A stretch of DNA of 64,000 bases from a virus, in the IMG/VR virus record IMGVR_UViG_3300021962_000056, positions 28,532-92,531 of that record, one strand, 5' to 3'. Within the stretch, counting starts at the first letter, position 1. Every line of letters starts with the position of its first letter. A program made the translations under genes and the position numbers. The notes under the pieces were generated by a model, which saw only the letters and a list, made by a program, of their open reading frames with translations, did no database searches and was not told the DNA's origin. Positions 1,824 to 63,897 of this stretch are shown here, in pieces.

Positions 1824-2601
1824 CTTTGAGGATCCAGGTTGGGGATTGAATGATCTGGATGGAATCGCCGTTGTACCCAGGCCAGCTGTCGGTGTCTTCG
1901 CAGACCATCCACTGGCGGATCCACGACTGCCACGTGCTGGACCCCTTGTCCAAGGATTCGGTGTCCAGCTGGTACACAGCGACCGCGTAGGGCGCTTGGT
2001 CTTCGACGCAGATCCACTGCCATGCGCGTGTCTCGCCGGTGATGTCCCGGTACAGGTCACGGTAGTAGGCAGCCTGCACGTCATAGCGCAGCTGGCCAAT
2101 CTGGCGCCGGAACCCGGCCTTGCTAGCATCGCGGCATTTCTTCAGGTCCACGATTACCGGGGTCGTGTTGGGCAACCAGTCGATCAGGCCCTTGCGTTCG
2201 CAGGACTCGAACTCACCGAACATCCCGACCTGCGCTTTGCCCGGTTCCGCAAACAGGCGTCCCGCAACCGGGTGTTCGCGAACGGCCTCGACCATGCGCT
2301 CGACGGTTTCGATTGCGTCCTGCTTGAACACGGTGACGCCTCGGGCCTCCTGCTCGTCTCTCCAGCTGCGTGCCTCCTTGGTCCGGTAGTCATCGAATGG
2401 CGACGTGGTCCAGAGGTACGGCGTGCCGAGGACTTTGTGATCCAGCAGGGAGCCGATAGCCATGGCCTCGGACGGTTCGCGCTCTTCCTCAAAGCCGACC
2501 ATGGCGTGCGCCGGTGACCGCGAGAAGGCCTTAAGGCTGGAGATGTTAATCGCCGGGTGTTGGCGATACGTGTGTACGTCGATGGGGTGGACTAACTTCA
2601 C
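1807..2601 (-). CDS. PD-(D/E)XK exonuclease (RecE / exonuclease VIII-like, DUF3799 type)
   Basis: INISSLKAF..SPAH, KGLIDW, VDLKK and YDVQAAYY motifs; next to the annealing protein. Confidence 0.85.
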   Translation of the reverse strand: MKLVHPIDVHTYRQHPAINISSLKAFSRSPAHAMVGFEEEREPSEAMAIGSLLDHKVLGTPYLWTTSPFDDYRTKEARSWRDEQEARGVTVFKQDAIETVERMVEAVREHPVAGRLFAEPGKAQVGMFGEFESCERKGLIDWLPNTTPVIVDLKKCRDASKAGFRRQIGQLRYDVQAAYYRDLYRDITGETRAWQWICVEDQAPYAVAVYQLDTESLDKGSSTWQSWIRQWMVCEDTDSWPGYNGDSIQIIQSPTWILKDETLP

Positions 2602-3599
2602 AGCGCACCTCCAGCCTTCATCATTGCCCGACCAATGCCGCGCTTGTTGCGGATCACCCACTTCTTCAGGTCTTCAGTCAGATCATTCGCCGTCGGGTAC
2701 GCCTCGGGCGTCGGCCACCAGTTCAGTTCGGTGGCGAGTTTCACCAGCTGCTCGTAGGTCGCACCAACCGAGGCCAGCGTGGACTCGACGGTTTCTTCAA
2801 CCAACTCGGGCAGCGGTGCCGGGGTGGCAGGAGCCTCGACCGGTGCGGGCTCAGGCTCGGGAGCCGGCGCAGGTTCAGGTTCAGGCACAGGCACAGGCTC
2901 AGCGACCGCGATGGCTTCGGGCTCGACCTTCTTCTTGCGCGGCTTGGGCTCAGGCGGATTCGGGGTCACGTCCACAACGGAACTGGTCACGGTGGTAGCG
3001 ACAGACGGCTGCACGACCTGTTGGGCTACCTGAGTGTCGTGGATCTCTTCCGAGGTGTGCATACCCAGCGCGATCTCCGGCGCATAGGCGCGGCACCAGA
3101 ACGCAGCTGCGCGGTACTGAAGCATCTGCTCCGGCATGGTCTTCCATTTACTGCCAGACTTGCCATACCAACCCTCGGCCTTGGCCATGGCGATGGTAAC
3201 CAAGGCGCCGACCAGTTCGAGATTGCCCTCGCGCTCGACAGCGAAAGCGCGGCAGCCCCAGTCATCCGTCCCCTCTTTTCCGACCCAACGGAAACGCATC
3301 GGGGAGAACCGGCCACAGGAGTTGACGGTGGCGATCAGGAACGAGGCAGACCACGTGGGCTTGCCGTGGATTGGAACCATCGACTGCATCACGGCCATGA
3401 CAGAGGCGCCGATGCGCTGACTGAGTTCGAGCGCGATGATGCAGTTGCCGAGGTTGGCTTCGCCCCGATACGAATCAGGAACGAGCGTGCTAGACGCAAG
3501 GGCCTTCGCCATGCGTTGCACTGAGACGAACGCGTTCTCCGAAGAGAAGGCGCTCAGGGGTTGCGATTGCTGTGTTGTTGCGACTTGTAGGTTGCTCAT
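2598..3599 (-). CDS. RecT/Bet-like single-strand annealing protein
   Basis: LASSTLVP..Y, GKPTWS, SKWKTMPEQMLQYRAAAFWCR.YAPE..LGMHT.EE; Pro/Glu linker. Confidence 0.75.
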   Translation of the reverse strand: MSNLQVATTQQSQPLSAFSSENAFVSVQRMAKALASSTLVPDSYRGEANLGNCIIALELSQRIGASVMAVMQSMVPIHGKPTWSASFLIATVNSCGRFSPMRFRWVGKEGTDDWGCRAFAVEREGNLELVGALVTIAMAKAEGWYGKSGSKWKTMPEQMLQYRAAAFWCRAYAPEIALGMHTSEEIHDTQVAQQVVQPSVATTVTSSVVDVTPNPPEPKPRKKKVEPEAIAVAEPVPVPEPEPAPAPEPEPAPVEAPATPAPLPELVEETVESTLASVGATYEQLVKLATELNWWPTPEAYPTANDLTEDLKKWVIRNKRGIGRAMMKAGGAL

Positions 3600-28828: not shown

Positions 28829-29254
28829 TCAAGCAGCTGGCAACTCTGAGGAAGAGGTATCAACACCTCCGACAGGAGTTTCCGCATTGACGAGCGGCGG
28901 CTCCACCTGCGGCAGCATCGGAGGCACGATCATCACCGGAGTCACCCACGGCAGCGGCGGAGCGATGATCGGAGGGTTGATCTGGTTCTCGATCTGCTGA
29001 GTGACGTTCGCTTCGATGGCGGTCTTGTCCACGCCATTGGCATAGCACCAGCCGAGAACCTGATCCTGCGTGAGCTGATCGTACGGCGTGAAGTTCTCAG
29101 TCGGCGGAGCGAACGACGCGCTGCCGTAGCAAGTGCCGCTGTACTGATCCTGCGAGCCGTTGCAACGCCAGTCGGCGGTGATGACGACATCGGTGAGCGA
29201 GCCTTCGGTCGGGCGGACAAGAAGGCGTTCGATGATCCAGTTGATGGTAATCAT
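28829..29254 (-). CDS. Fibre-associated protein (DUF7936-like)
   Basis: DVVITADWRC, FTPYDQLTQDQVLGW, PLPW; homologue at 63529. Confidence 0.8.
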   Translation of the reverse strand: MITINWIIERLLVRPTEGSLTDVVITADWRCNGSQDQYSGTCYGSASFAPPTENFTPYDQLTQDQVLGWCYANGVDKTAIEANVTQQIENQINPPIIAPPLPWVTPVMIVPPMLPQVEPPLVNAETPVGGVDTSSSELPAA

Positions 29255-29260
29255 GGGATA

Positions 29261-31039
29261 TTAGGCTTCCAGAGCGGCAACACGGGCGGTGAGTTCCTGA
29301 ATGGCTTTCACCAGCACAGGAATGAGGTCTTGGCGAACGGACTTGTAGGGAGTTTCGCCTTCGGGGGCGTTGTCCTTCCACTCGTCGATAAGGTTCGGGA
29401 ACACCTGCTCAAACTCCTGAGCGATGAAACCCCTGTCACCTTTGATGTTCTTACCCTTACCTTCCTTCCAATCGAACTTGCGAGGCTTGAGGGCGAGAAT
29501 CGCACCGAGGCCAACGTCGATGTCTTGGACGTTTTCCTTCAGTCGAGCATCGGAGATGGCCGAGATGGTCGTGTTAGTGGCGTAGACGGTTCCGCCCATT
29601 CCAACGTAGAAACGGTACGCAGCAGCACCGGATGAATAAGCGTGAAAAGTTGTAGCAACGTTGTTTGAAGAACTTTGTGTCGCAAACACTTCTCCGTTAG
29701 CCTTAAGTTCATGACCAACTGTTCCAAGTGAACCAGCCGTAGACTTCGCCACCAACAGATTCCCACTCGCATCCAGCGTCATCGCTTGGGTGAAGGCTAT
29801 TGTTCCAGTATTAGCGGCAGCGGTGTACCAAGCGTGCTGTCCTGTTGCGGACTGTTCGTAAAGAGTGGCTTCGTCGTTTACGATGTAAGTAAAGTTACCA
29901 GCCGCGCTTTCGTAGACATTACGTCCGATGCAGGTAGAACCAGCGCTTGCAGCGGACGAGAAGTAGGTTCCAACCGCGCCGATCTGCAACGCTCGCTGAG
30001 TATTGCGCCACGCACTCGGCGTAACCCCCACGCCCACGTTTTGCGAAGCATCAATCGTAAGCGCTTCCGTCAGATTCGTTCGGAAAACAATCGACGTCGA
30101 ATTGGGTGTGCCGATGACAAACTTAGTTCCATCGGTAAACAACTGACCCTGATAGGTGCCATTGATCGCAAATGTCTGCTGTGCAGTTCCAGCCGCAGGA
30201 CAATCAATTCGGAATTGTCCAATTGTTGAAACATTTGATCCATAAGCATACAGCTTCGAAGCCGGACTTCCCCCCACGCCCAGCCCCGTGCTGTTGAGGG
30301 TCATGGCGGTGCCAGCGAATCCGCCGACGTTCTGGAACGTAAATACCCCCGTGGAGTCGATTGCAAAGCGAGTAGAAGCAGCCGTTTCGTCACTAATGGT
30401 AAGCTGCCCAGACGAATTTGAATTTACGGCAAATCTTCGCCCAGATCCACCGCTTGAGTTTAATTGAAGCTGTGCGCTATTTCCGCTGGATGCTTGAATG
30501 AACACCATTCCGAATCCAGACGCACCTTCAACTTGAATTCGTCCGTTTGTAGATCCATTGACTTGAAGATCGTAACTCGGACTCGCCGTCCCAATACCAA
30601 CACCAGTAGTCGTAGTGGCAAGTCGATTCGTCCGCACCGTCAGATCGCCGGTGATGGTGGCGGAGGCGAGGGTGGCGGTGCCGTCCACATACAACGTATC
30701 AGTAGCCTTGTCGTATGTGAAATCTTTGTCGGTTGCTAGTACTCCGTTATCATTGAAGATAACTCGCTTGTTACCAGCTACGCCATTCGGAGCCGGCGGA
30801 GCGTACAGGAACTTCATCAACTGGTTGGTGATGATCGACTCGATGTCGCTCTCGGGCTGGCGAACGATCAGGTAGAACTCGTCCCACAGTTGTTGCGTGG
30901 TCAGGTTCGGGTTAAGCGGCGTTCCGACGTTTGCGTTGGCAAGCGCGGCGGCCATTGTTGACCGAACCTCGGACAACGAGTTGAGGTTCAGGACCTGCTG
31001 AGCATCCGACAGCAGGGTTTGAATTGCGGGGGTAGCCAT
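29261..31039 (-). CDS. Fibre protein with C-terminal intramolecular chaperone (peptidase S74)
   Basis: GIGT.SP repeats, SDARLKEN, GFIAQE, LVKAIQEL. Confidence 0.9.
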   Translation of the reverse strand: MATPAIQTLLSDAQQVLNLNSLSEVRSTMAAALANANVGTPLNPNLTTQQLWDEFYLIVRQPESDIESIITNQLMKFLYAPPAPNGVAGNKRVIFNDNGVLATDKDFTYDKATDTLYVDGTATLASATITGDLTVRTNRLATTTTGVGIGTASPSYDLQVNGSTNGRIQVEGASGFGMVFIQASSGNSAQLQLNSSGGSGRRFAVNSNSSGQLTISDETAASTRFAIDSTGVFTFQNVGGFAGTAMTLNSTGLGVGGSPASKLYAYGSNVSTIGQFRIDCPAAGTAQQTFAINGTYQGQLFTDGTKFVIGTPNSTSIVFRTNLTEALTIDASQNVGVGVTPSAWRNTQRALQIGAVGTYFSSAASAGSTCIGRNVYESAAGNFTYIVNDEATLYEQSATGQHAWYTAAANTGTIAFTQAMTLDASGNLLVAKSTAGSLGTVGHELKANGEVFATQSSSNNVATTFHAYSSGAAAYRFYVGMGGTVYATNTTISAISDARLKENVQDIDVGLGAILALKPRKFDWKEGKGKNIKGDRGFIAQEFEQVFPNLIDEWKDNAPEGETPYKSVRQDLIPVLVKAIQELTARVAALEA

Positions 31040-46788: not shown

Positions 46789-47006
46789 GGTATCTCGCTT
46801 AGTTCTTTGATGATCGTGTTCCGCTCGCGTCCCTTTGCTCGCACGATGAGTTGAAGCAGTGTGATAGGGTCCACCGTGGAAACGTGCTGCCAATATGGTC
46901 TGGCTGCGTCGAGTTCCCGTGCGCGGTCGATGTCCACCACAAGCACTTCGCTGGTCATCTTGTGCTTGTAGACGAACGCGACTGAGAGGTCTGGTGAGAT
47001 GCTCAC
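46785..47006 (-). CDS. Hypothetical protein spanning the A/B junction (5' part repeated at 1-106)
   Basis: GTGA-coupled start; frame open across 46901. Confidence 0.6.
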   Translation of the reverse strand: MSISPDLSVAFVYKHKMTSEVLVVDIDRARELDAARPYWQHVSTVDPITLLQLIVRAKGRERNTIIKELSEIP

Positions 47007-47221
47007 GGCTTTGCCCCCTTCTTGGCCTGTTTCCATTCACGCAAAGCGGAATCGACATCCATGCCACCCATGTGGCTTCTGTTGAACATCATCCAAACCA
47101 GAATGCTGTCCCCAGCGTCCTCGATTCGTTCAATGCGCTTCTTCAACGCTTCGTTCTCTGCTCGCAGTTTGTCGCGTTCCTCAAATAGGTCGACGACCAG
47201 CTTGTTGTTGAAGTCACTCAC
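47003..47221 (-). CDS. Copy of 103-321 protein
   Basis: Near-identical; ends KGAKP. Confidence 0.75.
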   Translation of the reverse strand: MSDFNNKLVVDLFEERDKLRAENEALKKRIERIEDAGDSILVWMMFNRSHMGGMDVDSALREWKQAKKGAKP

Positions 47222-48180: not shown

Positions 48181-48545
48181 TTCTCCTCCTCCACGACGCC
48201 ACACGGCAACCACGTTTTACCGCCGTCGGTGCTGTGTTCACGTTCCTCAAGCCATAGCTCTCTGTCAGCTTGTCCGGATACCCATCCAAGAAGATGCCGA
48301 TCATATGGAGCTTTCTTGAACCGTATCCACGCACCAAGCGGAACCTCATCCGCAGTCCATGGGCGGAGCGTCTGCTTGATGCGGTAGTCGTAGCTGTCAA
48401 AGTCCCACCACGGCGCGTCTGTATCGCACCAATCTGGCTTCAACACGCTTCTTGAATCGCACTTCTTTATGCGATGCTGGATTTCGTATCCATCCACATA
48501 CGCATCCATGATGCGGATGGCTTCTTTGGTTTGTTCTCGTGTCAT
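48177..48545 (-). CDS. Phage protein, W(D/N)F...YRIK family
   Basis: MDAYVDGYEIQ...PWWDFDSYDYRIK; coupled. Confidence 0.7.
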   Translation of the reverse strand: MTREQTKEAIRIMDAYVDGYEIQHRIKKCDSRSVLKPDWCDTDAPWWDFDSYDYRIKQTLRPWTADEVPLGAWIRFKKAPYDRHLLGWVSGQADRELWLEEREHSTDGGKTWLPCGVVEEEK

Positions 48546-49189
48546 TTCGATTCCTCGATAGCTTGATGGATGACGGAGAATTCCTTGGCGAAGATCGTAT
48601 CGCGGATGGCTGTGGCGATGTCGCGATGCTCCTTTTGAGTGCCTTTGGCGCACCGCTGGTCAAAGTAGTGAATCCATGAGCGGATGTTGCCGGTCATGTA
48701 CAACGTCGTCTGCGTACAGAGTGGTAGAACCATGCGCGCTGTCTCGCGGCTAACGCCCTCGTTCAGCAGCGTACGATAGGTTCTGAACGCCAGATCGACT
48801 GACTTGGCAACAACCTCATTGGCCCACTCCTGAGGAAATGTTTCACCGCTTCCTTGGCGATTGGCTCGGTCCTGCGTACGAAGCTCGACCGGCTCCGCTG
48901 CGTCGCTCGGCGCATAACGCTGGCTGAACTCCTGAAAGCAGAAACTGCGATGGCGCAGGATCTGGGCGGAGATGGCGCGGCTGGTCTGGATTTCAACGGT
49001 CATGCTCGCTTGTTCGAAGATGCTCCAATGGCCGTGCTTGATGCAGTAGGCCAATAGCTTCGGTGCGGTGAGAAGGCTCATCTGGTTCGACGGATTGCTG
49101 ACCCTCGCGGCGAACGTGATGAAATCGGAGGCGGTCATTGTTCCGTCGCCGATGGTTGGTTTTGTGATGGCTACAAGTCTGACTTTCAT
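48542..49189 (-). CDS. thyX: FAD-dependent thymidylate synthase
   Basis: HWSIFE, QILRHRSFCFQEFSQRY, RETARMVLP, TQKEHR. Confidence 0.95.
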   Translation of the reverse strand: MKVRLVAITKPTIGDGTMTASDFITFAARVSNPSNQMSLLTAPKLLAYCIKHGHWSIFEQASMTVEIQTSRAISAQILRHRSFCFQEFSQRYAPSDAAEPVELRTQDRANRQGSGETFPQEWANEVVAKSVDLAFRTYRTLLNEGVSRETARMVLPLCTQTTLYMTGNIRSWIHYFDQRCAKGTQKEHRDIATAIRDTIFAKEFSVIHQAIEESK

Positions 49190-49716: not shown

Positions 49717-50511
49717 TTAGGTTTCCGATTTATTCAGCACCCATTTTGGGCATGAAAGTGTGATGGTTGTCGTTGGGTAGGCTGGCCAACTGTCCAGTGC
49801 GCGGCACTCATGCAGCGTCGAGATTGCTTTGCGGCGCATGTTCTCACCGGCCTGAAGCCATTCGGCGTCCAGCTTGTAGATGCCGACCGCGTACGGTGCC
49901 TTACGCTCGACCGCCACGAAGATGAAGTTCTCCGCGCCGGTCATGGCAAGGTAATGCGCCGCCTGCATGTGATAGGCAAACGTGCCGATGGTTCGGCTGA
50001 ACGCTTCTGGCGATGCGTCGTCGGTCGTCTTAACATCGACCAGGGTATGATCCTCGACCCACATGTCGGGCCGTGCTTTAAGAGGTAGGCCAGTCTGTTC
50101 GTCCTCAGCAAAGACCGATGCTTCGATCTTGTTGTCGAGATGCGTGATGTCCCAGAACGGATGGCGGCGGACAGAGTTGGCGACGCCCTGCACATCGATG
50201 TCCTCAGCATGGGTCAGATGGATGCGAGACTTGTGCATCTCCTTCCACGCCTTGCCTTCCTTGGTACGACCGTCGATATCCGGCGGGATGACGGCGACAA
50301 CCTGCGAATAGAGATGCGGCTCCAGAACAGCGGTATGAATCGCCGTCCCCATCTGCATCGCTTTGCTCGGCTCCTGATGCTCCTCCAGCGCGGCGCGGTA
50401 GTGAGCCGGTGACTTGAGGATCTTGGACATCATGCTTTTGGAGAGAGCATCAATGGCGTGATACTTCTCGGCTGGCATGTCGAAATTAACGTGGCGGTTT
50501 AGAATACTCAT
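49717..50511 (-). CDS. PD-(D/E)XK exonuclease (RecE-like, DUF3799 type)
   Basis: YHA..ALSKS, GTAIH..VLEP, KARPD, DVKTT, YHMQAAHY. Confidence 0.9.
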   Translation of the reverse strand: MSILNRHVNFDMPAEKYHAIDALSKSMMSKILKSPAHYRAALEEHQEPSKAMQMGTAIHTAVLEPHLYSQVVAVIPPDIDGRTKEGKAWKEMHKSRIHLTHAEDIDVQGVANSVRRHPFWDITHLDNKIEASVFAEDEQTGLPLKARPDMWVEDHTLVDVKTTDDASPEAFSRTIGTFAYHMQAAHYLAMTGAENFIFVAVERKAPYAVGIYKLDAEWLQAGENMRRKAISTLHECRALDSWPAYPTTTITLSCPKWVLNKSET

Positions 50512-51341
50512 TCGGTCGGAGGGTTGGCGAACGCCTTGGCCTTGGAGATGAAACCGTCCGCATCGGCGATAATCATGTTGGCCACCTTGGTGCTGACATC
50601 GCGGAAGTTCTGGTCGGGCTTGATGAGGTTCTTGCTGATGAGGAACGCATTGGCCGCTTCGGAATGTGGCTCAAGAATCTGCTCCAGCTTCTCAACGAGC
50701 GAGAAGGTCGATTCCGGCGTCACATTGACCGTCTGGCGCGTCGGCACGGTCGGAGCGGGTGCTGACGGCGTGGCGGAGAAATCGGCCACCTCCTCGGGAC
50801 TGTACCGGCCTTGCGTGATGCGCGGATCGAGCATCCGAGTCGCTTTGCTGATGAGGCGCGCACGGAGCATCTCAGCGGGGAACTTCGCCCAGCCGCTACC
50901 GGGTTTGGCCGGAAGAAGACCAGCTTGCTTCGCATCGTCCGATGTGAAGGACACGCGCACCTTCTTTGCGTTCTTGCTGAAATCGGCAATCGCGGCCTGA
51001 CCGTCGAACTGAATCCAGTCGATGTCCCATCCGGCGTCCATCAGACCGGCGAGCATCGACTCGCTCTTCATCGTGATGTTACCATTGATGAGGTGATTGC
51101 TCTTCTTCCAGCTCAATGGCGTCTGCTTGCTGGCGATGCACTCCAAAGCGAGGACGTATCCCTGCTCTGGCTTTGTCGCTCCGAACATGCCGGAGTGTGC
51201 TATCCAGTCGCCAAGCTGCTTGACCGAATCAAGCGAGGTGCATGCTTGGGAATAGAATTCGCTATCAGGCTGCGGGGCTAGGGGCTGCGTCGGTTGAGAC
51301 GGTACTGCTACCGTCAGTGTGGCTGCTTGGTTGCTGCTCAT
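50508..51341 (-). CDS. Putative RecT-like annealing protein
   Basis: DAKQAGL, WAKFPAEMLRAR.IS..R..DP...G.YSPEE; next to the exonuclease. Confidence 0.7.
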   Translation of the reverse strand: MSSNQAATLTVAVPSQPTQPLAPQPDSEFYSQACTSLDSVKQLGDWIAHSGMFGATKPEQGYVLALECIASKQTPLSWKKSNHLINGNITMKSESMLAGLMDAGWDIDWIQFDGQAAIADFSKNAKKVRVSFTSDDAKQAGLLPAKPGSGWAKFPAEMLRARLISKATRMLDPRITQGRYSPEEVADFSATPSAPAPTVPTRQTVNVTPESTFSLVEKLEQILEPHSEAANAFLISKNLIKPDQNFRDVSTKVANMIIADADGFISKAKAFANPPTE

Positions 51342-61889: not shown

Positions 61890-63527
61890 ATGGCACAGCA
61901 AACGATTAACGTAGGCGCAGCCCCGAATGACGGAACGGGAACACCGTTGCGTACGGCGTTCCAGTACACAAACAGCAACTTCAGCGAGCTGTACACCGCA
62001 ACCGGACCGAGCGGCAACAACATCACCGTACCGGGAACCGCCACCATCAGCGGCGACCTGACGGTGGATACCAGCACTCTGAAGGTGGTTTCTGCGAGCG
62101 ATGTCGTTGGAATCAATACCGCCTCTCCGCTTACCGGAACTGATGCCGGTTTGACGATTGGTGCGATTGGTACTGTAAAAGCCTTAAACATCGGCCTCCA
62201 GAACACGTTTGCTCGTTTGCGCGAAAAGGATGCCCTTGATGCGTTTGCAATAACGACAAACATGACCGCATTGAATACACAGGACGATGCTACCAAGTCA
62301 TCTTGGAAAGCTCGGATGGGATTCGGAAACGGGAATGACAATTTTATAATTTCCCGTTCCGGTGTTGGTAGCACGACGTTTTACGATCTGCTTTCTGTTT
62401 CTACTGGTTCGTGCGTCTGGTACGACGGCGCAGGCGGCACTCGGATGACGTTGAATGCCACCGGCTTGGGCGTGGGTGCGAGTCCTCTTTCTGCATCAAA
62501 GCTGACGTTGAACGGTGGCACTGGAGACACGTCATCTCAAGATTCGATCTTCTCGTTAATCAGAACATCTTCCAACGGAAATGTTCTTACTGGAAAGGTT
62601 GTTCTAGCTCAAAAAACGACCGACTTCGGAAACATTGTTTTCCGAATCAAAACGACCGCTTCGTCTGCGGAAAACCCTGCGTATTACACCAATGCTCTTA
62701 CAATAGACGGAGAAAATGGCAACGTCGGCATCGGGGTTACGCCGAGTGCGTGGGGAAATCAATATCGCGCTATTCAGATTTTCAACAACAGCGCACTCTA
62801 CGGAGCTAACTCTTACGGTTATTACGGACTGTTGTTCAATGGATACAATGACAACACCAATATCAAAGCGATAGCTTCTTTGTATGTTGGAGAGTATCGT
62901 TATGAGTTGTCCACCGGAGCGCACAAGTGGTTTGGAACCACTGCAAATGCGACGGCTGGAGCTACTGCTACACCAACGCAAGCGATGACGCTCGATGCGA
63001 GTGGGCGGTTGTTGGTTGGAACTGCAAATGCTTCAGTCACTTCTGAAACTGGATGTCGCTTGCTGCTTAATAACGGCGCAACTGGTCATTTCACTCTTGC
63101 TGTAACAACCAATCAAAGCACTGCCGCAACTTCGTGTTATGACTTTTATTCAACGTCTGCGGCAGCATATCGTTTTTACGTTACGTCAGCCGGTGTAATC
63201 AACGCCACAAACACGACCATCTCAGCCATCTCCGATGCTCGGTTGAAGGAGAACGTGCAGGATATCGACGTTGGACTCGGTGCGATTCTCGCGCTGAAAC
63301 CGCGCAAGTTCGACTGGAAAGCTGGTAAGGGTAAGGATATCAAAGGCGACAGAGGCTTCATCGCTCAGGAGTTTGAGCAGGTGTTTCCTAACCTCATCGA
63401 CGAGTGGAAAGACCCCGCTCCCGAAGGCGAAGCTCCTTACAAGTCCGTTCGCCAAGACCTCATTCCTGTGCTTGTGAAAGCCATTCAGGAACTCGCCGCC
63501 GAAGTCAACGCTCTGAAAAACGCCTAA
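61890..63527 (+). CDS. Fibre protein with C-terminal S74 chaperone (phage B)
   Basis: N-terminal INVG..PNDGTG.PLR.AF...N.NF.ELY; SDARLKEN, GFIAQE. Confidence 0.9.
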   Translation: MAQQTINVGAAPNDGTGTPLRTAFQYTNSNFSELYTATGPSGNNITVPGTATISGDLTVDTSTLKVVSASDVVGINTASPLTGTDAGLTIGAIGTVKALNIGLQNTFARLREKDALDAFAITTNMTALNTQDDATKSSWKARMGFGNGNDNFIISRSGVGSTTFYDLLSVSTGSCVWYDGAGGTRMTLNATGLGVGASPLSASKLTLNGGTGDTSSQDSIFSLIRTSSNGNVLTGKVVLAQKTTDFGNIVFRIKTTASSAENPAYYTNALTIDGENGNVGIGVTPSAWGNQYRAIQIFNNSALYGANSYGYYGLLFNGYNDNTNIKAIASLYVGEYRYELSTGAHKWFGTTANATAGATATPTQAMTLDASGRLLVGTANASVTSETGCRLLLNNGATGHFTLAVTTNQSTAATSCYDFYSTSAAAYRFYVTSAGVINATNTTISAISDARLKENVQDIDVGLGAILALKPRKFDWKAGKGKDIKGDRGFIAQEFEQVFPNLIDEWKDPAPEGEAPYKSVRQDLIPVLVKAIQELAAEVNALKNA

Positions 63528-63528
63528 C

Positions 63529-63897
63529 ATGAACATCTCTTGGATCATCGAACGCCTTCTCGTTAAGCCGACCGAAGGCTCCTACACCGATGTCGTCATC
63601 ACCGCCGACTGGAGGTGCAACGGCTCGCAGGAATCGTACAGCGGAACCTGCTACGGTAGCTGCTCGTTCGCTCCGCCGACTGGCAGCTTCACTCCTTACA
63701 ATGAACTGACCGAGCAGCAGGTTCTCGACTGGTGCTACGCCAACGGAGTCGATCAAGCGGCCATCGAAGCGAACGTCACCGCGCAGATCGAAGCGCAGAT
63801 CAACCCTCCGGTTGTGGTGCTGCCGCTGCCGTGGGTGCCGCCCGCTCCGGTTGTTGTTGCCGAGCCTGAGGTTGTTGCCGATGCTCCGACCGTATGA
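63529..63897 (+). CDS. Fibre-associated protein (DUF7936-like)
   Basis: Close homologue of 28829-29254. Confidence 0.8.
   Translation: MNISWIIERLLVKPTEGSYTDVVITADWRCNGSQESYSGTCYGSCSFAPPTGSFTPYNELTEQQVLDWCYANGVDQAAIEANVTAQIEAQINPPVVVLPLPWVPPAPVVVAEPEVVADAPTV

Follow-up and report, generated by a model that had tools for sequence, protein, structure and literature searches.

The tail-fibre genes of two related, uncultured phages, here called A and B, are built from divergent modules separated by four short GC-rich stretches that recur in the same order in both genes; judging from sequence comparisons, these stretches, which we call hinges (H1 to H4), probably act as homology patches through which modules are exchanged by homologous recombination. 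Both genes lie in a 64,000-nucleotide window, by which we mean the whole stretch of DNA analysed, corresponding to bases 28532–92531 of the 92.5-kb IMG/VR virus record IMGVR_UViG_3300021962_000056. In a repeat search, window positions 46901–47200 repeated positions 1–300 at 97% identity, so that window 1–46900 closes on itself and the window therefore comprises one phage genome (A) and part of a second, related phage (B). At three of the hinges (H1, H3 and H4) the codons themselves are locked across a large family of fibres from uncultured phages, and recent junctions between related fibres cluster at the hinge motifs.

An original prediction, made from the letters of the window, had proposed the four hinges as standardised crossover sites between variable fibre segments. 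The identities between A and B that it gave for each hinge (Table 1) proved exact, and its description of AT-rich modules punctuated by GC-rich hinges was borne out (GC fractions of 0.43–0.54 for the inter-hinge modules vs 0.54–0.73 for the hinges). In a protein-guided codon alignment of A and B, 20 of the 22 identical degenerate residues in H1, H3 and H4 taken together were also codon-identical, vs 41/108 in the rest of the alignment ahead of the C-terminal region, a figure near the expectation from pooled codon usage, the synonymous sites there being saturated (Fisher p = 4e-6). This comparison is post hoc, because the blocks had been picked for their identity, and for this reason independent data were used. 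At H2 only 2/9 codons were identical in the A/B pair, and its conservation in this pair is at the protein level; the claim that the hinges are conserved as DNA thus stands for H1, H3 and H4 and fails for H2.

A protein-pattern search of IMG/VR identified more than 562 relatives of these fibres, and in an alignment of 79 non-identical relatives protein conservation peaked at the hinges and at the C-terminal S74 domain. Excess synonymous codon identity, normalised and calculated from the same alignment with A and B excluded, was 0.31 at H1, 0.16 at H2, 0.38 at H3 and 0.25 at H4, vs 0.12 in other columns and 0.155 in S74 (all hinges vs the rest, Mann-Whitney p = 7e-6). The catalytic motif of S74 had codon usage essentially at background, with saturated synonymous sites, and therefore serves as an internal control within the same genes. 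We also scanned IMG/VR for each hinge with patterns degenerate at every synonymous position (82–116 fibres per hinge), so that the samples are unbiased in codon choice save for Ser, which was fixed to AGY; the samples include related sequences, and the counts that follow are not independent events. The H3 scan gave 82 matches, all in frame in fibre-like open reading frames (ORFs) and with the motif anywhere from residue 21 to residue 1116. There were 35 spellings, that of A and B being the commonest (10/82), and the third positions of the V, T, P and A codons (n = 328) comprised one C, 22 A, 138 G and 167 T (background A 0.30, C 0.20, G 0.15, T 0.35). The AGT:AGC ratio at H3 was 79:3, vs about 1:1 in the background, and the H3 bias persisted in genes with third-position GC content (GC3) from 0.12 to 0.69. 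Among the 81 matches of the H4 scan, GAT prevailed by 79:2 and AGT by 71:10, and GGG (59/81, background 0.13), CTG (55/81, background 0.18) and ACG (53/81, background 0.19) were all strongly over-represented. The H1 scan found the exact 27-mer of A in 75/116 independent IMG/VR matches. The codons of H1, H3 and H4 are locked, far from background, and amino-acid constraint alone does not explain them; across homologues, their synonymous sites are not saturated. A literature search for the motif strings returned nothing relevant.

The three locked hinges share a third-position profile. A run of ~7–14 codons with A/C-rich third positions (G/T fraction 0.10–0.35, background 0.52) switches within one codon to a G/T-rich run (0.8–1.0) of 4–14 codons, after which H3 and H4 return to background and H1 has a further, moderately G/T-rich run. 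The switch is sharp at H1, where the G/T fraction is 0.10–0.19 over codons -2 to +4 and 0.83–0.88 thereafter. The resulting skew islands span ~20–30 codons (60–90 nucleotides), and the switch can be seen in the sequences of A and B themselves, e.g., 13 A/C-ending codons followed by 7 G/T-ending codons at H1 of A. The same per-codon profiling found no such island around the SDxRxK or GFIAQE motifs of S74. The peptide D.SGNLG is spelt GAC TCC TCC GGC AAC CTC GGC at H3 and GAT GCG AGT GGG AAT TTG GGT at H4, so the spelling marks the position rather than the peptide, which fits joints that carry position-specific DNA identities. Chi-like sequences or a RecA preference are conceivable readings of the G/T-rich halves.

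Evidence for exchange at the hinges came from comparisons among the relatives. BLASTP alignments of relatives to B begin preferentially at residues B50, ~185, 267–276 and 363–368, which are the four hinges. A breakpoint scan with 40-codon windows, in which DNA identity between relatives passed from at least 90% to at most 65%, placed transitions at a junction next to the S74 domain (31/78 pairwise transitions), just after H1, and at H2, H3 and H4; a scan with 12-codon windows was dropped as circular, as it merely traces the conserved islands. All-vs-all megablast of 274 fibre ORFs, with a junction defined as at least 93% identity over at least 150 nucleotides followed by less than 60% over the next 90, identified 38 distinct recent junctions. 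By eye nearly all of these fall on ATITGDLTV, D.NNRVGIGTA, SALTFDG, (T)QAMTLDASGNL, RMRLDASGN.GIG or GVTPSAW; with strict regular expressions, 25/38 lay within 6 residues of a motif vs ~24% expected (p = 5e-8, the null being approximate), in keeping with the proposal of crossover sites. Junctions of this kind, which keep register, lie within identical DNA and lack indels, are a signature of homologous recombination.

Individual pairs illustrate these exchanges, and H2-type motifs act as junctions in some of them. Fibres L017 and L024 have identical DNA but for one cassette, bounded by MTLNSTGL (H2-type) and LD.SGNLLV (H4-type), and L068 and L069 are 99.9% identical over 844 nucleotides and unrelated after QAMTLDASGNL, inside H4. 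One A-like fibre, L147, lacks module 2: there the first half of H2 leads straight into the second half of H3, and the hinge islands of this fibre match those of A at 100% identity, vs ~40–50% for its modules. Hybrid joints of the form MTLNSTGLG(V/I)GVTPSAW, with an H2-type first half and an H3-type second half, occur in L147 (1613–2569), L162 and L017, and from their sequence we read them as probable products of whole-module loss or gain through out-of-register exchange. We followed module history by pairwise identity correlations in place of trees, as the majority of modules, being highly diverged or unrelated, do not align, and alignments of the variable modules are poor. Identity in one module was no guide to identity in any other (Spearman -0.05 to 0.17), and with the clear cassette swaps this shows that the module histories are not congruent. 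Neither of the outcomes named beforehand as refuting the original prediction, hinge conservation due to amino-acid constraint alone and congruent module histories, was thus obtained.

The notion of about four swapped segments was right in placing exchange at the hinges and too low in its count, as exchange points number more than four, the most used being a fifth junction that the original prediction had missed. This S74 junction lies where long identity between A and B begins, at AAAYRFYV just ahead of the S74 domain, after which the C-terminal third is 70% codon-identical. It maps to B residues 439–459 (window 63204–63266), between the fibre tip and the chaperone, and its codon island is mild and A/C-rich.

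Sequencing reads from natural communities gave a further view of the joints. Nearly all of fibre A was present in three sequencing runs, and a fifth to a third of it in many. When Logan contigs of four runs from four studies (X1, X3, X4 and X5) were aligned to the fibre A gene, contigs ended and overlapped at each of the four hinges in all four runs, summed depth jumped at the hinges by up to ~50-fold (in X1, 761 in the H1 bin vs ~15 for the modules), and many contigs matched one hinge and then the next, omitting the intervening module. Taken together, these patterns indicate that a common set of joints, in one fixed order, is present in many different co-occurring fibres. The pieces of fibre A and their flanks had even depth in X1 and X3 (15–20 and 50–59, respectively), and fibre A is therefore one molecule and not a chimera. 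Depths in X4 and X5 were unequal (S74 part 18.5, module 3 2.4, module 2 11.4, module 1 near 0), a pattern to be expected if, in these two runs, the modules belong to different genomes. As assemblies branch at the joints, fibre genes in viral contigs need long-read confirmation.

The alternative that survives best, though we consider it unlikely, is that illegitimate recombination joins modules at any position but leaves survivors only where the joint falls at a domain boundary, the locked codons serving translation, with slow wobble-read codons timing the folding of the trimer. The codons of the G/T-ending halves do include ones seldom found in these AT-rich genes (AGT, GGG, ACG and CCG, for example), and the junctions coincide with predicted domain limits, as for the AlphaFold2 beta domain between H3 and H4. 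However, this explanation sits poorly with junctions that are in register within identical DNA without indels, and with a peptide, D.SGNLG, that is spelt with opposite preferences at two hinges; moreover, the bias is a switch in strand composition and not a tRNA pattern, and it holds over GC3 values of 0.12 to 0.69 and thus presumably across many hosts.

It is less likely still, indeed quite improbable, that the mosaic is an artefact of assemblers jumping between co-occurring fibres at shared hinge k-mers. The branching of assembly graphs at all four hinges would permit such jumps, and the record itself joins two phage genomes via a shared block; yet depth is equal over every piece of fibre A and over its flanks in two runs (15–20 in X1, 50–59 in X3), junctions of these types turn up repeatedly in contigs of many separate samples, and neither the codon lock nor the skew switch can arise from assembly. 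We give slightly less credence again, and very little, to the view that the hinges are merely structurally constrained peptides whose DNA identity between A and B reflects chance and shared codon bias. The motifs rank with the best-conserved residues of the family, H2 behaves in just this way (2/9 codons identical), and A and B carry near-consensus spellings, with 6% of random family pairs sharing an identical H3 21-mer; but the third positions of H1, H3 and H4 depart widely from the background of their own genes, whatever the gene GC3, and in the S74 catalytic motif, which is no less conserved, synonymous sites are saturated. A conserved structure of the fibre mRNA, as might form if the A/C-rich and G/T-rich halves paired, which they could in principle do, is a most improbable source of the synonymous constraint, given that RNAalifold on 69 H4 regions (H4 only) returned -0.15 kcal/mol, 4 pairs and no compensatory change.

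Several points weigh against exchange through the hinges as we read it. H2 has no DNA conservation between A and B, and the commonest recent breakpoint is the S74 junction, whose codon island is no more than weak. Selection for functional chimeras would likewise leave junctions at domain boundaries, however the joining came about. The relatives are all metagenome contigs, in which assemblers can mis-join at shared repeats, so that some of the 'recombinants' are possibly chimeras; the check for chimeras by even module depth covered fibre A only, in two runs, and the samples hold related sequences, so that counts do not represent independent events.

Weighing these points, we still regard exchange through homology patches as probable. 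In this model, each fibre would be a trimer in which an N-terminal virion anchor leads into a shaft of consecutive beta modules and a distal tip, followed at the C-terminus by a chaperone with predicted self-cleavage after folding, the modules being linked by the junction motifs ATITGDLTV, MTLN.TGLGVG, D.SGN.G.GVTPSAW and FTQAMTLDASGNL. Because the codons are nearly fixed family-wide, otherwise unrelated fibres would have in common 20–60 bases of nearly identical DNA per joint. Should two phages, or a phage and a prophage, meet in one cell, a homologous crossover inside a joint could then yield an in-frame product with a new combination of modules. In both phages the genes for a predicted exonuclease and a predicted annealing protein are adjacent, as in RecE/RecT-type pairs, and the matches to phrog_412 and phrog_561 (Table 1) agree with the original prediction that each phage encodes such a pair; these RecE/RecT-like proteins may catalyse the exchange. 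We infer that the spelling, including the switch from A/C to G/T, is kept because it favours exchange, and it is in this inferred sense, as selected for exchange, that the hinges could be called 'standardised'. Selection for exchangeability may keep the spelling as it is, or the exchanges themselves may do so by homogenising the joints again and again; either amounts to the same exchange model. The absence of a reverse transcriptase or invertase, also predicted, was upheld: reverse transcriptase (PF00078) is absent from the whole 92.5-kb record, which rules out a diversity-generating retroelement, and serine recombinase/invertase (PF00239) is likewise absent from the record, leaving no candidate of that class for Gin/Cin/Min-type switching, while tyrosine recombinases were not searched for.

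Regarding the proteins themselves, both fibres score above the Pfam gathering score of Peptidase_S74 (22) at their C-termini, and the catalytic Ser-Lys motif S-D-x-x-x-K is found in both as ISAISDARLKEN, with S448, D449 and K453 almost invariant among 48 relatives. An AlphaFold2 model of B confirmed the S74 fold by Foldseek (7dc3 (E = 9e-4), 4uw8, 3gw6 and 3gud), and a profile of the 48 fibres matched the solved S74 structures 8jov, 6f45, 7dc3 and 3gud; both fibres are thus members of the S74-chaperone type, a very large phage fibre family. A phmmer search of B against the PDB gave a match to TOM40 alone, which we judged spurious, a profile search being needed instead, and Foldseek on the fibre model found nothing specific besides S74. 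In the model of the B monomer, the beta domain between H3 and H4 and the S74 domain are confident and the hinges themselves are not; the shaft of the whole-fibre monomer has low confidence, and the structural role of the hinges is therefore not defined by it.

Other descriptions in the original prediction also held. The N-termini of A and B are unrelated, with nothing aligning before A126/B50, and B residues 1–162 match phrog_677, a baseplate/tail-fibre connector family, whereas A has no such match. The chaperone regions share 87% DNA identity over 320 nucleotides and the downstream DUF7936 genes 80% over 314 nucleotides (both from the repeat search); as had been noted, the capsid proteins of the two phages are only weakly alike (23% identical). 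A gene for a DUF7936 / phrog_7802 protein adjoins both fibre genes, accompanying the S74 domain, and its product may be a fibre accessory or assembly protein. The window has a GC content of ~0.57; the inter-hinge modules of both fibres are markedly AT-richer than their genomes (GC 0.43–0.50 for those of A), and the whole fibre family is AT-rich at third positions. The low GC of the modules suggests their recent import from phages of lower GC.

Among the relatives, L007, L011, L017, L021, L065 and L071 have short ORFs (179–202 residues) downstream of the fibre gene that start with the N-terminal anchor motif of B (MAQQTINVG..PNDGTGTPLRTAF-like), and these are candidates for a second fibre gene or for a spare anchor module. 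L060, L064, L067, L049, L081 and L055 have two or three tandem fibre genes of the family, which therefore provide exchange partners within one genome. Compared by BLASTN with records of cultured phages, the fibre A region gave a single weak match, to the chaperone part only, and fibre A is therefore without a close cultured relative. As to the record, it consists of a circularly closing, complete 46.9-kb phage genome joined to part of a second, related phage via a ~1-kb common block; this joining of A and B could be an assembly chimera or a genuine concatemer, and the even depth of fibre A in two runs speaks only for the contiguity of A. Phage B also carries a ThyX-type thymidylate synthase gene (48542–49189, - strand; Pfam Thy1, E = 6e-47).

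Table 1. Positions of the fibre genes, hinges and associated genes of phages A and B within the window
Feature	Position	Strand	Description
Tail-fibre gene of phage A (592 residues, P0001)	29261–31039	-	Open frame; tail-fibre PHROGs; Pfam Peptidase_S74 at residues 496–550
Tail-fibre gene of phage B (545 residues, P0002)	61890–63527	+	Open frame; tail-fibre PHROGs; Pfam Peptidase_S74
H1 of A, ATITGDLTV	30635–30661	-	25/27 identical to B; joins N-terminal anchor to shaft
H1 of B, ATISGDLTV	62040–62066	+	~20 A/C-ending codons, then G/T-ending codons
H2 of A, MTLNSTGLGVG	30272–30313	-	28/42 identical to B, differences mostly synonymous
H2 of B, MTLNATGLGVG	62436–62477	+	28/42 vs A
H3 of A, GVTPSAW	30008–30028	-	21/21 identical to B; G/T-ending half of D.SGN.G.GVTPSAW island
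H3 of B, GVTPSAW	62733–62753	+	21/21 vs A
H4 of A, QAMTLDASG	29762–29788	-	26/27 identical to B
H4 of B, QAMTLDASG	62979–63005	+	26/27 vs A
Predicted S74 intramolecular chaperone/protease domain of A	29264–29554	-	Pfam PF13884, 58.7 bits
Predicted S74 chaperone domain of B	63231–63524	+	Pfam PF13884, 61.4 bits; Foldseek matches 7dc3, 4uw8, 3gw6
Gene downstream of fibre A, DUF7936	28829–29254	-	Pfam PF25590, E = 5e-26
Gene downstream of fibre B, DUF7936	63529–63897	+	Pfam
Predicted recombination pair of phage A	Exonuclease VIII-like 1807–2661; RecT-like annealing protein 2598–3599	-	phrog_412 E = 5.5e-65; phrog_561 E = 3.4e-69
Predicted recombination pair of phage B	Exonuclease VIII-like/PDDEXK 49717–50511; RecT-like 50508–51341	-	phrog_412 E = 4e-76, Pfam DUF3799; phrog_561 E = 3.8e-9

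The closest known counterpart is found in T-even phages, where conserved motifs of gp37 and glycine-rich motifs of gp38 lie between hypervariable segments and guide recombination (Trojet et al. 2011, PMC3157838, citing Tetart 1996 and 1998). As in gp37/gp38, conserved motifs in fixed order separate the variable segments of the A and B fibres, natural exchanges have their junctions in or beside the motifs, and the outcome is chimeric host-recognition proteins without a dedicated enzyme. Unlike gp37/gp38, A and B belong to the S74-chaperone fibre family and have no gp38-type Pfam or PHROG match; the match of the fibre profile to 6f45 covers the chaperone-like C-terminus only, placing these fibres outside the gp37/gp38 families. 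Whole beta modules of 60–130 residues are exchanged here, unlike the loops of the T-even proteins, and going beyond the T-even comparison we measured a synonymous lock and a third-position switch in more than 80 fibres per hinge.

The switch itself resembles GRINS, duplicated regions that exceed 500 base pairs, share more than 80% identity within one gene cluster and have been tied to gene conversion between homologous modules (2021, PMC8256042). As in GRINS, G-over-C and T-over-A skews go together in the hinge islands, peak at third codon positions and flip sign abruptly, and the islands too are tied to gene conversion between homologous modules; unlike GRINS, they are 60–90 nucleotides long, and so too short to count as such, lie between modules and are shared between genomes. 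We tentatively raise the possibility, about which we are more doubtful than about exchange itself, that the switch is a selected, position-specific 'address', by which joints would be identical community-wide and distinct from each other (keeping exchanges in register), with G/T-rich strands favoured by annealing or strand-exchange proteins; the islands might then be a miniature relative of GRINS acting between genomes. If exchange does run through these joints, the switch would allow the relation of nucleotide composition to recombination to be tested, a question left open by the GRINS work on polyketide synthases.

At the level of protein architecture, the mosaic adhesive trimer (MAT) fibres of Bdellovibrio and S74 phage fibres have been described by Caulton et al. 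(2024, PMC10769870), who reported a MAT capping-loop motif, V-G-G/N-x-x-x-P-x-x-x-L, between beta-helix subdomains; this resembles the VGIGTASP..L of the present fibres. Our family profile on the shaft, the model of which has low confidence, matched the MAT structures 8oml (4e-6), 8ond (1.4e-4), 8on4 and 8ojn, and the fibres resemble MAT fibres in having an S74 chaperone and a mosaic composition and may also resemble them in a trimeric shaft of beta-prism/helix type. Unlike the present work, that study did not deal with DNA-level joints or exchange. De Paepe et al. (2014, PMC3945230), writing on relaxed homologous recombination, propose that phage Rad52/RecT-type recombinases drive mosaicism via short or diverged homology; A and B each encode a pair with a predicted annealing protein of this kind.

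The principle is thus already known from T-even fibres, and the present case offers a new, well-documented instance of it rather than a principle of its own. It adds the S74 fibre family, another type of phage, unbiased codon statistics for three joints and read evidence from communities. As tail fibres determine which bacteria a phage infects, exchange via a few codon-locked joints common to hundreds of uncultured phages would, if true, make the evolution of host range in natural communities predictable from sequence, and the joints would be ready in-frame splice points for fibre chimeras in laboratory phages.

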